DNA from: Microthyrium microscopicum
Taxonomy: Eukaryota
Direction of reading: 5' to 3'
Assembly: GCA_010405405.1 (NCBI GenBank)
Contig: MU004234.1
Span: 957,275 to 1,021,274, forward strand
DNA length: 64,000 nt
Shown here: positions 13,543-30,974 of the stretch, one piece after another
Layout: the number at the start of each line of letters is the position of its first letter
How positions within the stretch are numbered: position 1 is the stretch's first letter
Program-made: the position numbers and the translations under genes
The notes under the pieces: generated by a model
The model's input: only the letters and a program-made list of their open reading frames with translations
What the model was told of the DNA's origin: nothing
The model's database searches: none

Positions 13543-16500
13543 GGCAATTGTTAAGTGGCCTCAGCTAATTCTGAGGTAGCCCTAGAAGGATCTTAGGTAG
13601 CCTCAGCCGCCATTATCTAAATAATTATCTACCAATCCTATATTAATCTAACCTTAAGTAGCCTTAGTCTAACCTAATATAGTAATATCTTAAAAAATAA
13701 AAATAGATTACTACTAAGCCTTACTTCTAACTTTATATCTAACTTTATATCCTTAATTATTACTACTATTACTATAACTACTACTTCTTTATAATATAAT
13801 TACTTAACTATAAACTAACCAAAATAGACTAATTTAACGTTTCTTATATCCTTAACCTTTTCTCTACTAACGTTATTTATCCTACCTAGTAAAAAGGCCT
13901 TAACGCTATTTATGTTTATAGTAAAATCTATAAATATTATATTAAATAAAAGCGTAGTTCTCCCTCTAAATTAAATCCTAATAATGTATATATTTAGTAT
14001 ACTAAAACTAGTAAACCCTTTTACTATAGAGATACCTTCTATAATATTAAAAGCGTAAAAGATTATTATCCTTATAACTATTAAATTATATAAAGCAAGA
14101 ATAAAGCTCTTCTAAGATAAATTATTAATTATTAAGGTACCTATTATAACTATCCTATAGTATAAATAGATACTACTTATGCTACTATTTAATTATAGGC
14201 TTAAGAAGCTTTAAGAATCTACGACGAAGTTACTACTTTATCTTTAAATAAGAGGACGTTACTAAGTAAGATAATAATAACCCTTTAATGTAAATATCCT
14301 AACCTTATAATTACTATTTAGGATATCTATAATATAAGAAGCCTTAATAAGATAATTTAACTTACTAGATATACCTTAATTAATATTATAGTAGCTAAAT
14401 TATATACGCACCCTAAATTTATATATAAAATCTAAGTATGCTAAAATAAGCTTATAAGCCTATTATTAGTATCTAAATAGTCTATTAAGCTTTATTAAAC
14501 TTATCCTAATATTTTACTCTTTAATTTAATATACTAAACTAATAAATATAAGATGCTAATATTCTATATTAATATAGTAATAGCAATAAATAAATACTTT
14601 AGCGTAGCGTTTATATATATAATAAGTAAAGATAAAGTATAATATTAATAGGTGCTAAAAGCGTTTAATAAGAAGATTTAACTAGGAATTTCTCTCCTAA
14701 ATATTGTCCTTATAGACTACTACTTAGTGCTAAAGAATGCCCTTATAATGTTAATTCCTAATTCTTAATTAATATGTTAATATTACTATAAAGAAGCTAT
14801 TTATCTTTATATTAAGACATGTTAGAATTATCTTTAGTATCTTAAGGATCCTATAGGAAGGGCTATTACTACGCAGACTTAAGAATTAGCCTATAAGCTA
14901 TAGTTAAAGGTAGCTAAAATTCCCCTACTATTAGAGTTAATTTACTAATAAATTTATAGGTTCTTTACGCTTTAATAAAGCTTAAACTAAACGCTATATA
15001 AGAATATCTTAATACTATATTAAAAGTAGATAATAAAGGTCTCTACTTTATATTATATCTTAAGAAGACCTAGATGCTATAAAAATATTAACTTTATAAC
15101 GTCTATATCTCTAGAGTCTACTATTTAGGTATAAAAATAATTTCTCTACTAGAAGGATTATATAATGCTATTAAAGAATAGATTTAAAAGAATAGTAATC
15201 TTCTCTCTATCTTAAATACTCTAAAGGACGCTATTAAGGTTTAATATAAATAACTAAAAGATACTATAGGCTATGAAGCTAAATACGCGCTATATAATCT
15301 ACTACTATAGTATCTTCTTATTATATTAAGAATATTCTACTACTTTATTAGTAACTACGCTCTAGATTTAATAAAGAAGCAATATCTTAAGTATAAAAAT
15401 AAGGAATCTAGATAAGTTAAATATATAGAGTACTCTTTAACTTTTACTACTACTATAGGGTTATTATATAGTTATACTATTAAGCTAAAGCTTACTAAAG
15501 ACTCCTATTAGGTTCTTAATAAGGCTAATATTAATCCTTACTAGTTTTATAATTAATTTAAGTCTAGTAGAGAGTTAAATTATCCTTTATAATATCTTAT
15601 TAGTTAAGATCTATTGCCTAAAGTTACGTTAGGAATTTAGCCTTTAGATATTATTTATAGTAGTAAACGTCCTTAAGCATCTTAGTCTAATGCTTAGCCT
15701 AATTAACGCCTATAGGCTTTAATAAGTTAAATACTATTTTATACTAAGCTTTAGCCTATTCTATTGCTAGTGATAGTTAATATAGTAGCTATAGTAGCTA
15801 TAGCGTCTTAAGAATTTATTAATATTAAAGATTTAGATACTAAACTTATATAGACTTATACTATAGAACGCTAGCTACTACTAGAAGCTATAGAAGTAAT
15901 AGATCTTATAGTAGAATTAGGCCCTTCTTTATGACTTTAGCTAAATTTAAGCTTATAATCTTCTCTAGCTAAATACTAACGCTAAAATACTACTCTTTTT
16001 ATTTAATCTTTACCTAAATAAGTATTAAGTAAACGTACTATAGCTTTATTAAAGAAGGTACTTTAGATTAAAGTAGATTATTAGGCTATATAGATTAAAG
16101 AGCTAGAACGCTATTAGGCTAAGCAAGAGCGCTATTAAGCTAATCTTAAAGAACATCTTACTAAAGCTAAAGCTATAGCTATAAAGGCCTAAATTATTAC
16201 TTTAATAGCTATTACTATTATTAAGATAATAACGTATAAAGAAGTTACTACTACTACTACTATTTGCGTGCTAATTTAATTAACTAGAGGCTTAAATAAG
16301 AGAAGAAAGAGGCCTATTTAGTAGTATCTAGATAAATATTCTTAAAGATAGTTTAATACTAAGAATCTATATAAAGATTGTATATAAATTAGCTATAGAA
16401 TATATATATTATCTTTAATAATAGCTAGTAAGTCTAAATCTCTCTAAGGGCCTAATTTAGGTATAAAATTAGTATTTTTAAAGTTAATAATCTATATGCG

Positions 16501-17609: not shown

Positions 17610-18499
17610 GGTAAGGTCAATATTGTCAATATCAAGAGAACTCTGACTGTTGATATCGAGTTACAGAAAGTTATGTCGGTAACAGTCATGTCGCAGCGAC
17701 TCTGCATTTAGACTGCTAAGCTGAGGAGATGCAGAGCACAACTTACTTCCCTACAGCCGTTGAGCGGCATGACAGATGATTCACCACCACTAGCAGCGAT
17801 ACTTGTCGGTACGTTACCGTAGTGGGTACAATGCTAGTTGAGATCCACTTAATTTGACTGTATGCTTTAGTCTGTAAAGCTAAATGCATAACCTACTTTC
17901 ATTACCCTAGTTACTTTACGATTTCAACATTTTCAGGACCTCGATATTTAAATCATAGACGTGTATGACATTGCAGCTCAATGTCGCAGTATAAAACCCT
18001 AAAATGCACCACTTCTTGAATTGAGCGGGAGGTATAGAATATGTCACCCAGGTCGACAATTTGAACCAGAACAAACTATGGATGATATCTCTCGTACGTA
18101 TATGCTATAAGAGGCTGAATGACTTCTTCTCCAGCATTTTACGATGAGGGATCATTCAATGTTGCTAGATTAAAGATAATTTTGATGGTTGGGCTTTGCA
18201 CATTGATAGGTTCGTGTCGCTTTCTCAAACATGATTAATCTAAATTTTGATTGCTATAGGAATATCATCCATCAGGAACAGAACAAAATAGCAAGGGATT
18301 ATAATTCACTCTTGTAGAAAATGGCTACGTCTAGTTCGACGTCTTCATACGATTCTTTCGGAAGGCGCGAGCAAGAAGCATGTTTTCGGCGTGACAGTAG
18401 GCGCGCCGTAACTTCCATCACTTCACGGGACTATCGCGGGCTGGTCAAGAAATTGCCAGACTTCTAAATAGTCTCCAAACCTTTGCTGTATGGGGCGAG

Positions 18500-20284
18500 A
18501 TGAAGGTGTTCTCCAAGTCGGGAGGGTCTACTCCCCACGAGCCGCCTCAGCAAGCCGATTCCGTTCACAGTAATGAAACTCCATCCAACTCATCACAAGG
18601 GAAGAAGGAAGTGAAAACCAGAAGGCCACCCAGTTCGTTGACCCTGACTATCTCGCGTAAAGCAGGAGAGCTAAGTGTATAAACAGATTCGGCTTTCCGT
18701 CAGCAGAGATTAAAAGCATGGATGTATGGGAGTTTTGATCTTGACCCAAAGGTTCTGTTCACTGACTTTTGACCAAGGCCCATTCTTACCATACGGACAG
18801 TGGTGCCGTTGTATTTTGCTGCTGGTCTTGTTCTTAGTCCTATTGGAGGATGGTTTCTCTATAATAGTGCAAAAGTAAGTCCTGTTTGCCCAATCGAAGA
18901 GGCGCAGGTTGACTAATGGACTTCAAGGTCAAAGAAATTGCGCTCGATTATTCAAATTGCGCCAATGAAGCAGATGAAACATATGCCGACATGCCATCTA
19001 AGCTCGTTGAACATCATTTCAGATCTAAAGAAAAAGTCCAGTCGCCGCAGTGGAAAGTAGAGCACAACACCACAGTGCAATATATGGACAGTCTGGTAAC
19101 AGTGCCTGACACAACCAAATGCTACCTCCAATTCACGATCCCCGAAGACATGCATCCACCCGTTCTTCTGTACTATCGACTAGAAAACTTTTACCAAAAC
19201 CACCGATTCTATCTCGCCTCCTTCAGCGCCAATCAGCTTGCAGGAAAGGCCATCACAGCTACCCAAGCCACCAACAGCGACTGCTCCAGACTTGCAGTAA
19301 ACGAACATGGAAAAGTGATCTACCCCTGCGGCTTGATAGCGAACTCCATGTTCAACGACACCATCCTCTCACCTCGCGTACAGTTTCCGGCAGCTGGGAA
19401 TCTCAGCCATGTATCGATAGTCTATCCCATGTCAAGACGAAATATTGCATGGGAACATGACAAGAAGCTCTACAGTAGAACAAATTACCAGCCTGGTGAA
19501 GCAGTGCCGCCTCCGCACTGGGCTCGGAGATGGAATTACACAGTCAGGATGCCTGACCTTACGAACGATGAATCATTCCATGTGTGGATGCGAACTGCAG
19601 GACTGCCCAAGTTCAGCAAACTGGCCATGCGCAATGACCAGGAGACATTGAAGAAAGGCGTGTATGAGCTTGAAATCTGGGATGGTAATTCGGTTCACCA
19701 AGACCCAGAGTTCAACAGACTAACTGTGCCGCAGAGTTCAACACCACGCTTTACGGTGGCAAAAAATCTATTCTTATTTCAACAAGAACTGCTACTGGTG
19801 GAAGAAATCCATTCATGGGCATTGCTTATGTTATCGTCGGCGTTATTTGCATCTTGCTGGGGGGTACTTTCACCATTTTGAATGCCCTCAAGACTAGGTA
19901 CGTAGTGTCTCCAGGGACAAAACAAGTGAGCCTTTTGGATGGAGTTCCCGTCTTCTACGATGGCTGCCGTAACACTTATAACAGAGTGACTGCTTCAATT
20001 ACTATCGTAGTCGATCATCTCACGTAAGTTCTACGACATTGATGGGCATTAAAGCAGTCACTCTTCAAGAAATGTTATAGTAGCCATGGTAGGATGAGAA
20101 TAGTCATCGAAACGGCTGACTTATTTTTTCCCTGCAAGCTATCCTAGGTGCTGTCTTTCTTCTGCATTTATTGACTTTTCTTAGGAAACTCGGCGATGAC
20201 AGCCAGTTATCTTGGAATAAAGCAAGATCGAAAAAAGTCTTGAACCCGCCTCCTGCAGATTCTCGAGTGCTAGACAGTTTCTAA
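18500..20284 (+). CDS. CDC50: CDC50/LEM3-family phospholipid flippase beta subunit, multi-exon
   Basis: KTRRPP/DSAFRQQRLKAW/PILT, YYRLENFYQNHR, YPCGLIANSMFNDT, FHVWMRTAGLPKFSKL, GGRNPFMGIAY. The last exon RKLGDDSQLSWN (20185-20284) follows intron 19898-20184. Confidence 0.93.
19898..20151 (+). repeat. Long imperfect inverted repeat filling the last CDC50 intron
   Basis: AGAGTGACTGCTT (19983-19995) pairs perfectly with AAGCAGTCACTCT (20052-20064). CAGGGACAAAACAAGTGAGCC pairs with GGCTGACTTATTTTTTCCCTG, and further co-linear helices are present. Confidence 0.9.
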
Positions 20285-20890
20285 CTTCAAAGTTGCGGAA
20301 TTCGTAGAGCCTGTCATTGGTTTCTGGTGTCGATATTGGTGTTTGTATTCCTAGGTTTCCTAATGTCAGAATCCGCACTTGTTATTCCCTACATTTATTC
20401 ATTATATCTCTAACAGCCTCTCCGGTTCATAACTCACTCACTTTATCGATATTATGACCTGAATAAGGTAGTCGTATTCTGTCAAGACAATACAAAGTTG
20501 ATTTCTGAGTAGTAGTCTTCCGTGTTCATGAAGGAAAATGCATTCGCAAGTACACTGTACGGCCTGATAATCCCTGATTGATAGCCAATCAAAAGAACTG
20601 GCTAGAGTGGGCGCACGCTAGTGTCTAGCGTCCCGCGGCCCGCATCCCTAACCCACTCCTTTGCGCGCCAGGGTATCCACTTACGTCAGCGGCTGTCAGC
20701 TCCCATTGAGGCCATTCACTGAGAGACGAGCAGTAGATGCGATGAATAAACCAGGGAATACGTTGGTATCGTTTTGTTTCGATTACGATATAGCTAATTT
20801 GATGCGAGTGCAGCGTGTTCGTCCACTCTTCAAGGCTAAATCAGAATGCAGCCAAAGCTCAAAAGAGCGACCATGCATGCCACGAAGCAA

Positions 20891-29942: not shown

Positions 29943-30119
29943 ATTGAAGCTGGTTAGAAGGTCCCTAGGTATTTGAAGTTTGAAGTTGGAAATAGAGTAT
30001 GTTCGTGTAGCAGAAAACAAAAGAAGCGGTTGTATCTTGCGACTAATGGTAGAACAAGCCACTTAAGAGCTTATTATGCAGGTTCCAGTTATTGTATGCT
30101 TACAGCGGGGTAGGAGATA

Positions 30120-30452
30120 CCGTAAGAATCCGGTGAATTGAGCACGATGAAAATGGGCGTTTTTTGGCGTCCCTATGGCGTTTTTCTATACTTCATATTA
30201 TCTTTGATTTTCTTCCCCATTTCCCTAAAAAATTGCTTTAAGTTCGTGGAATAAGATACTTATAATAAGTTCATTAACCTAGCCAAAAATCTAGCTCAAA
30301 ATTGGTTATAATCTTGCTATTTTCAATTGTTCAAAGATTGACTAGGAAAATTGGGCTTAGAAACCCTGTAATTTTCGACGCCCCTTATAACGGCACTCTC
30401 CTTCACGGCACTTCATTGGCTTCATCGTGCTCAATTCACCGGATTCCTACGG
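30120..30452. mobile_element. MITE (non-autonomous, Tc1/mariner superfamily type), 333 bp
   Basis: 32-bp TIRs CCGTA(A/G)GAATCCGGTGAATTGAGCACGATGAA at 30120-30151 and 30421-30452 (1 mismatch); TA on both sides (30118-19, 30453-54); no ORF. Confidence 0.9.
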
Positions 30453-30974
30453 TAATGAACTGAGTATTTCTAATGACATAGCGATTGGCGTTGAAAGAAC
30501 GACAGTGCTCGGCTTATTATGGTCGTTGATTTGTAATACACCTTGCACAGTCCCATCAACCCCTAGGAAGCCATACATCGTCTATTTGCGACTGAAATGT
30601 TGACTCAGCCTTGTATTTTTATTCTATCTTCAACTCAGCATTTCTTATAAAGCTTTGGGTAGGTTTGTGTTCCCGCATCAACCTGAATCGCACCGATTCG
30701 TGTGGACTGGACCTAAAGGTAGGCTGGTAGCAAATTAAGCTACATCTGACATAATATACGTATGAGCAAGTCCCGGTATCTGCTGTCATCTTCTCATTAT
30801 AACAATTGATTAGAAACGTTCGAACCATCTGAAGGTGGATATCAGCTTAAACATACAAAAAGTACAGTAGGTGGAAGCGACTGTCTTCCTCTTTTCTCAG
30901 GTTTCTTCTATTGAACATGATATATTGTTTTACAACTAGAGTGGATCTTCAACCTTTGATCAAACTGCCTAATT

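Follow-up and report, generated by a model that had tools for sequence, protein, structure and literature searches.

The hairpin in intron 5 of a Microthyrium microscopicum CDC50 paralogue: very probably a decayed fold-back element in an old intron

The last intron of a Lem3/Cdc50 gene of Microthyrium microscopicum, a Dothideomycete, carries a long hairpin that is very probably a decayed, MITE-like fold-back element residing in an old intron, and not a regulatory switch. The gene occupies 18500..20284 on the + strand of the window (the whole stretch of DNA analysed, 64,000 nucleotides), where a six-exon model (CDS exons 18500-18632, 18687-18723, 18778-18874, 18928-19684, 19735-19897 and 20185-20284) gave a clean translation of 428 aa. 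Once spliced, this model was identical, letter for letter, to the public protein P0001, the Lem3/Cdc50 of M. microscopicum. Exon 4 alone was 100% identical to this NCBI protein and matched the Pfam CDC50 family (PF03381) with an E value of 3.5e-68. The gene is a divergent paralogue. A second, more canonical CDC50 gene (P0004, 413 aa) is present in the M. microscopicum genome and is 52-55% identical to the window copy. The window copy deviates at several near-invariant positions of the CDC50 protein alignment (A1); for example, it reads KTR-KLGDDSQLSWN, whereas the P0004 paralogue and 11 other fungi read KPR-KLGDHTYLSW.

The five introns of the gene measured, in order, 54, 54, 53, 50 and 287 nt. 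The unusual length of intron 5 (19898..20184, + strand), already pointed out in the first-pass annotation, was thus evident against siblings of 50-54 nt. Intron 5 has GT..AG ends and interrupts the gene in phase 2, inside the R codon (AG|G) that precedes KLGD. It can be divided into three parts, namely a 5' remnant of the original intron (19898..19911, + strand; the donor GTACGT plus 8 nt), a fold-back, MITE-like insert of 223 nt (19912..20134, no strand assigned) and a 3' remnant (20135..20184, + strand) that holds the branch motif TTGAC, whose A at 20174 stands 10 nt from the end, along with a pyrimidine run and the TAG acceptor. The insert was delimited from a self inverted match, RNA folds, the alignment of its arms and DNA contigs, and comprises a left arm (~19912-20023), a right arm (~20024-20134) and an apical loop (~20011-20033). 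Removal of the 223-nt palindrome left 64 nt (14 + 50 nt), which retained their own donor, branch motif and acceptor. The insert is short (223-237 nt) and non-coding, with only short stop-to-stop frames in the six-frame list.

The RNA of intron 5 was predicted to fold as one long imperfect hairpin with a minimum free energy (MFE) of -107.8 kcal/mol. Across 200 dinucleotide shuffles the mean was -68.4 ± 5.1 kcal/mol (z = -7.77) and none of the 200 folded as well, confirming the initial reading of a single hairpin beyond shuffled controls. Per nucleotide, intron 5 reached -0.376 kcal/mol, compared to -0.12 to -0.19 kcal/mol for its four siblings (50-54 nt). The self inverted match covered 19912-20134 at 70% over 226 columns. 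Since a DNA palindrome folds on both strands, the antisense strand gave a value close to that of the sense strand (-95.0 kcal/mol, z = -6.8); the sense fold was 12.8 kcal/mol better, a difference that the count of co-linear mismatches does not explain. Several details listed from the sequence were recovered here. The helices proposed for the stem were found in or adjoining the MFE structure, the second donor consensus GTAAGT was in the apical loop (20025-20030), and the internal CTGAC..AG was present in the sequence. Downstream of the stem, most of 20152-20184 was free of pairing in the ensemble, at a mean unpaired probability of 0.76.

Of seven sequencing runs listed for the locus, none recorded as RNA, four were aligned to 18400-20600 at a likeness of at least 80%. 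One contig of run X5 (record 9, 2442 nt, 0 differences) joined the exons across all five introns at GT..AG and skipped exactly 287 nt at 19897|20185, the same joint on which the public protein P0001 is built. In the DNA run X3, one 12209-nt contig spanned the whole stretch with 0 differences and had none of the five joints; X3 may be the source of this DNA and hence does not count as independent support. The RNA status of X5 is a guess by the search tool, supported by the five exact intron joints that were absent from the DNA. Because the five GT..AG joints occurred in X5 and none in X3, X5 behaves as RNA of M. microscopicum, and the annotated splice sites are in use. This RNA evidence consists of a single assembled contig from one run, and such contigs are blind to minor retained or alternative isoforms. 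Similarly, no X5 contigs lay over the bin 20102-20175, but contigs cannot show absence and this is therefore not evidence against a retained form. The two remaining runs covered only 19320-19504 (X6) and 20358-20508 (X7) near the locus, with the intron outside both. X6 contributed 172 identical nt at 19333-19504 (depth 3.7) and X7 151 nt with 7 differences (depth 3); these low-depth contigs from unrelated runs suggest that this fungus, or one related to it, left traces in other samples.

The hairpin is not unique in the genome but one member of a dispersed family of repeats. Copy number was judged from the contigs of X3, 21 of which aligned to the gene; one was the locus itself, one a paralogue exon (at 19567-19643, with loose ends that read as paralogue coding sequence) and 19 matched the hairpin only, although contigs break in repeats and one copy split over two contigs could count double in this figure. 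These 19 were confined to 19880-20175 and matched parts of 19908-20101 at 80-95% identity; 18/21 contigs were less than 90% alike. X3 depth exceeded 960.7 only at the paralogue exon and in the bins 19880-20175, which places the other 19 contigs on the hairpin, and the three bins spanning 19880 to 20101 had summed depths of 5342, 7480 and 6341. Among the matches listed, six element pieces lay between 19908 and 20091 and carried 10-19 differences in 70-109 nt; the contigs bearing the listed pieces were 635-9701 nt long and had depths of 892-1087 versus 960.7 at the locus, as expected of single-copy loci. The first-pass annotation had stated that many dispersed copies would make the hairpin a plain MITE, and it is these 19 other contigs that were found. 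No second copy of the hairpin was found within the 64-kb window.

Eight records (5 from X3 and 3 from X5) all began matching at exactly 19908, and the letters upstream of this position agreed at only 0.53-0.6. These alignments place the sharp edge of the repeat at 19908, 10 nt into the intron, and show the upstream flanks to be unrelated. A branch site and acceptor read in the reverse-complement consensus before 19908 were considered and rejected, in view of this flank agreement and the ancestral position of the intron (see below). Copies of the element also occurred on nine contigs of the RNA-like run X5, in one case close to the end of a contig of 5587 nt. With regard to a target-site duplication, no direct repeat adjoins 19908/19912 and 20134 in this copy. 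TA dinucleotides occur symmetrically at 19903-19904 and 20140-20141, which fits a TA duplication and could also be chance. Two odd X3 contigs (19915-20130) were observed, one joining 20130 back to 19915 and the other joining 19942 to 20009 with a change of strand; elsewhere in the family, copies may be arranged in tandem or as palindromes of another layout. Among the matches listed for papers naming Microthyrium microscopicum there was no title on its repeats, and the family appears to be undescribed in this species, though its kind is well known.

Divergence was apparent on both arms of the hairpin. The co-linear arm alignment contained 79 Watson-Crick pairs (of 107 ungapped columns), 6 G.U, 7 A.C, 18 transversions and 3 gap columns, giving a stem that is 72% paired with many bulges. 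Transversions, which had been noted among the mismatches from the start, made up 18/31. There was no excess of sense-strand G.U among the arm mismatches (6 G.U vs 7 A.C, the latter being G.U on the antisense; binomial P = 1.0). The consensus behind 20091, built from 3 X3 and 2 X5 records, had an agreement of 0.85-0.86. By hand count, family right-arm letters complemented the left arm at 19926-19955 in 24/30 positions, rising to 28/30 (also by hand count) with the family majority letters at 19950, 19953, 19954 and 19955. Because the family letters raise complementarity in this way, the ancestral element can be reconstructed as a better palindrome, from which the window copy has decayed on both arms. 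Of seven substitutions private to the window copy, three kept a pair and four fell at positions unpaired in the MFE structure, a split that speaks neither for nor against maintenance of pairing.

We further investigated the age of the intron position with a profile of 13 CDC50 proteins (alignment A1), which retrieved 80 CDC50 loci from metagenome contigs. Loci were classified by a pair of motifs, FLGIAY-like and KLGD-like, that are 87 nt apart if contiguous. This classified 45/80 loci; the 35/80 without the motif pair were left out of the intron count. Twenty-seven of the 45 fungal loci were interrupted in the same R codon at the same position and phase (24 as AG|GT..AG, 2 as CG|GC and 1 as CG|GT), whilst 18 were contiguous, most of them on short, cDNA-like contigs. 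By comparison across these loci, the position and phase of intron 5 are ancestral. The interrupted loci comprised 23 distinct orthologous introns of 37-122 nt (median 62), with a median MFE of -0.15 kcal/mol per nt and a minimum of -0.319, compared to -0.376 for intron 5. A hairpin of similar length or stability was absent from all 23, and the element had no significant match in the 80 metagenome loci (best E = 0.74). Since the 64-nt remainder is complete and its position is shared, an ordinary ancestral intron would have received the insert, rather than having been created by it.

Three other explanations for the hairpin were weighed. The first, the reading preferred in the first-pass annotation, is a structure-gated splicing switch; the stem would control access to the donor or branch site, for example by temperature, and so tune production of the conserved C-terminal tail. 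Retention would indeed replace this tail, and the predicted replacement of ~42 aa was reproduced (42 aa following the R codon); GTAAGT and CTGAC..AG both occur internally, and donor positions +6 to +8 were paired at 0.96-0.98 in the ensemble. The central claim of pairing between the stem and the 5' splice site of the same intron was not confirmed, however. The helix proposed for the donor (19898-19905/20144-20151) had an ensemble probability of ~0.33, compared to ~0.65 for a competing 5-bp helix (19902-19906/20138-20142). When the donor and palindrome were held fixed and the 47 nt of 3' flank before the last three were shuffled (n = 100), the mean paired probability of donor positions +1 to +6 was 0.485 observed versus 0.484 ± 0.24 shuffled, and 45/100 shuffles equalled or exceeded the observed value. 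Donor contact at chance level, the near-equal G.U and antisense G.U counts, membership of a dispersed repeat, absence from 23/23 distinct orthologous introns, and the assembly of only the fully spliced form in the RNA-like run X5 together leave a regulatory switch unsupported, and we regard it as extremely unlikely.

In a second explanation, small RNAs would arise as a by-product when the imperfect duplex (~100 bp) in the pre-mRNA or excised intron is diced to siRNA or milRNA against family copies or other targets. The gene is expressed, and its sense transcript includes a long stem that is mostly paired. The only Rfam matches resembled a microRNA precursor (mir-7131-like); found on both strands at 20.4 and 19.7 bits, they fell below the gathering score of 74 and mean no more than a hairpin. 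The stem itself is heavily bulged, there is no conservation in other fungi (80 metagenome loci, 23 distinct introns), and, unlike in a mirtron, the ends of the hairpin are not those of the intron; the stem spans 223 nt and leaves 14 and 50 nt of intron outside. This explanation is distinctly unlikely. In a third, the whole 287-nt intron is itself the mobile unit, an introner-like element or proliferating symmetrical intron gained at this site. The host belongs to the Dothideomycetes, intron 5 greatly exceeds its siblings in length and in stability of folding, related copies are present elsewhere in the genome, and no flanking duplication was seen here, as in the Hypoxylon sister introns (PMC8469720). 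The proposal nevertheless fails on position and boundary. The same position and phase are common to 27/45 classified CDC50 loci, so the intron was not gained here, family homology starts at 19908 inside the intron and is preceded by unrelated flanks, and the 14-nt and 50-nt remainders already form a complete intron. Moreover, element copies on nine X5 contigs, including that near the end of the 5587-nt contig, are unexpected for efficiently spliced introns. A newly gained introner is thus very unlikely. An old fold-back element, also among the alternatives originally offered, is the one that the evidence supports.

We propose that a short, non-coding fold-back repeat (~223-237 bp) was inserted, presumably by transposition, long ago in the ancestral last intron of this CDC50 paralogue, at a point 10-14 nt downstream of the donor and 50 nt upstream of the acceptor. 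After insertion, both arms would have drifted as neutral DNA. The whole 287-nt intron with its insert is removed by normal GT..AG splicing, and the insert is most likely passive cargo with no demonstrated function. Tolerance of such an insert may be explained by its own structure. In the pre-mRNA, the arms would pair and loop out the 223 nt, returning the donor-branch spacing to roughly that of a normal short fungal intron, and intron-definition splicing could thereby still work. The linear donor-to-branch distance was 276 nt in intron 5 versus 38-41 nt in the four siblings, whilst the shortest path through the predicted fold was 13 steps in intron 5 and 8-11 in the siblings. On this modelled geometry, and by analogy with known intron stems, self-pairing probably keeps the splice signals close.

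For CDC50 biology a decayed fold-back insert would be of little consequence, since a normally spliced message encodes the flippase subunit. It does provide an example of a 50-60-nt fungal intron made five times longer in one step with splicing kept, and argues that striking intronic hairpins should be checked for membership of a repeat family before they are called regulatory. The family could also mark transposon activity in the isolated Microthyrium lineage. A bolder extension, which we consider unlikely, is that the fold-back family is adapted to very short introns, where self-folding would let it evade limits on intron length and colonise harmlessly, and where the excised duplex might be diced to police the family. 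If most copies proved to be intronic and sense-oriented, the family would be intermediate between plain MITEs and introners.

Other inverted repeats were present in the window. An element at 30118-30454 is 337 bp long and ends in inverted repeats of 34 nt that are 97% complementary; its interior is AT-rich and not palindromic, and a TA stands at both outer ends. It has the appearance of a younger Tc1/mariner-type (Stowaway-like) MITE and is unrelated in sequence to the CDC50 hairpin. Two AT-rich inverted-repeat pairs, at 15481-15758 and 16202-16431 (27-29 nt, 74-76% complementary, 176-220 nt apart), could be either chance matches in low-complexity sequence or additional fold-back elements in decay.

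Amongst known systems, the hairpin resembles MITEs and fold-back elements found in introns. Like these, it is short and non-coding, its arms are inverted over the whole length, its dispersed copies are 80-95% identical at single-copy loci, and it is intronic and removed with the intron; it differs in that neither a target-site duplication nor a defined terminal motif is apparent in this copy. The introner-like elements of Dothideomycetes, as outlined in PMC3609843 (summarising van der Burgt et al. 2012), are multi-copy, longer than regular introns and stably folded. They share with the present case the fungal class, the multiple copies, the extra length and the stable predicted structure, but are whole introns at newly gained positions, whereas intron 5 occupies an ancestral position and the repeat begins within it.

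Two systems of intronic pairing offer further parallels. The sister introns of Hypoxylon have terminal inverted repeats of 45-55 nt that are ~73% identical, with no flanking duplications (PMC8469720). These Hypoxylaceae sister (stw)introns are similar to intron 5 in being spliceosomal, in their imperfect inverted symmetry (~73%) and in normal splicing, with neither an Rfam family nor flanking duplications recorded (PMC8469720). Their symmetry extends to the intron termini and they occupy novel positions, in contrast to the internal palindrome here, which leaves 14 + 50 nt outside and lies at an old position. In the yeast RPS17B intron (PMC2536676), pairing of segments after the donor and before the branch site promotes splicing, presumably via a shorter distance. 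Both the RPS17B zipper stem and, as predicted, the hairpin shorten the effective distance, which falls in the modelled fold of intron 5 from 276 nt to 13 steps. In yeast, efficient splicing depends on the stems, and mutants were used to test them (PMC2536676), whereas in intron 5 the effect is only predicted and the stem would be a side effect of a palindromic insert.
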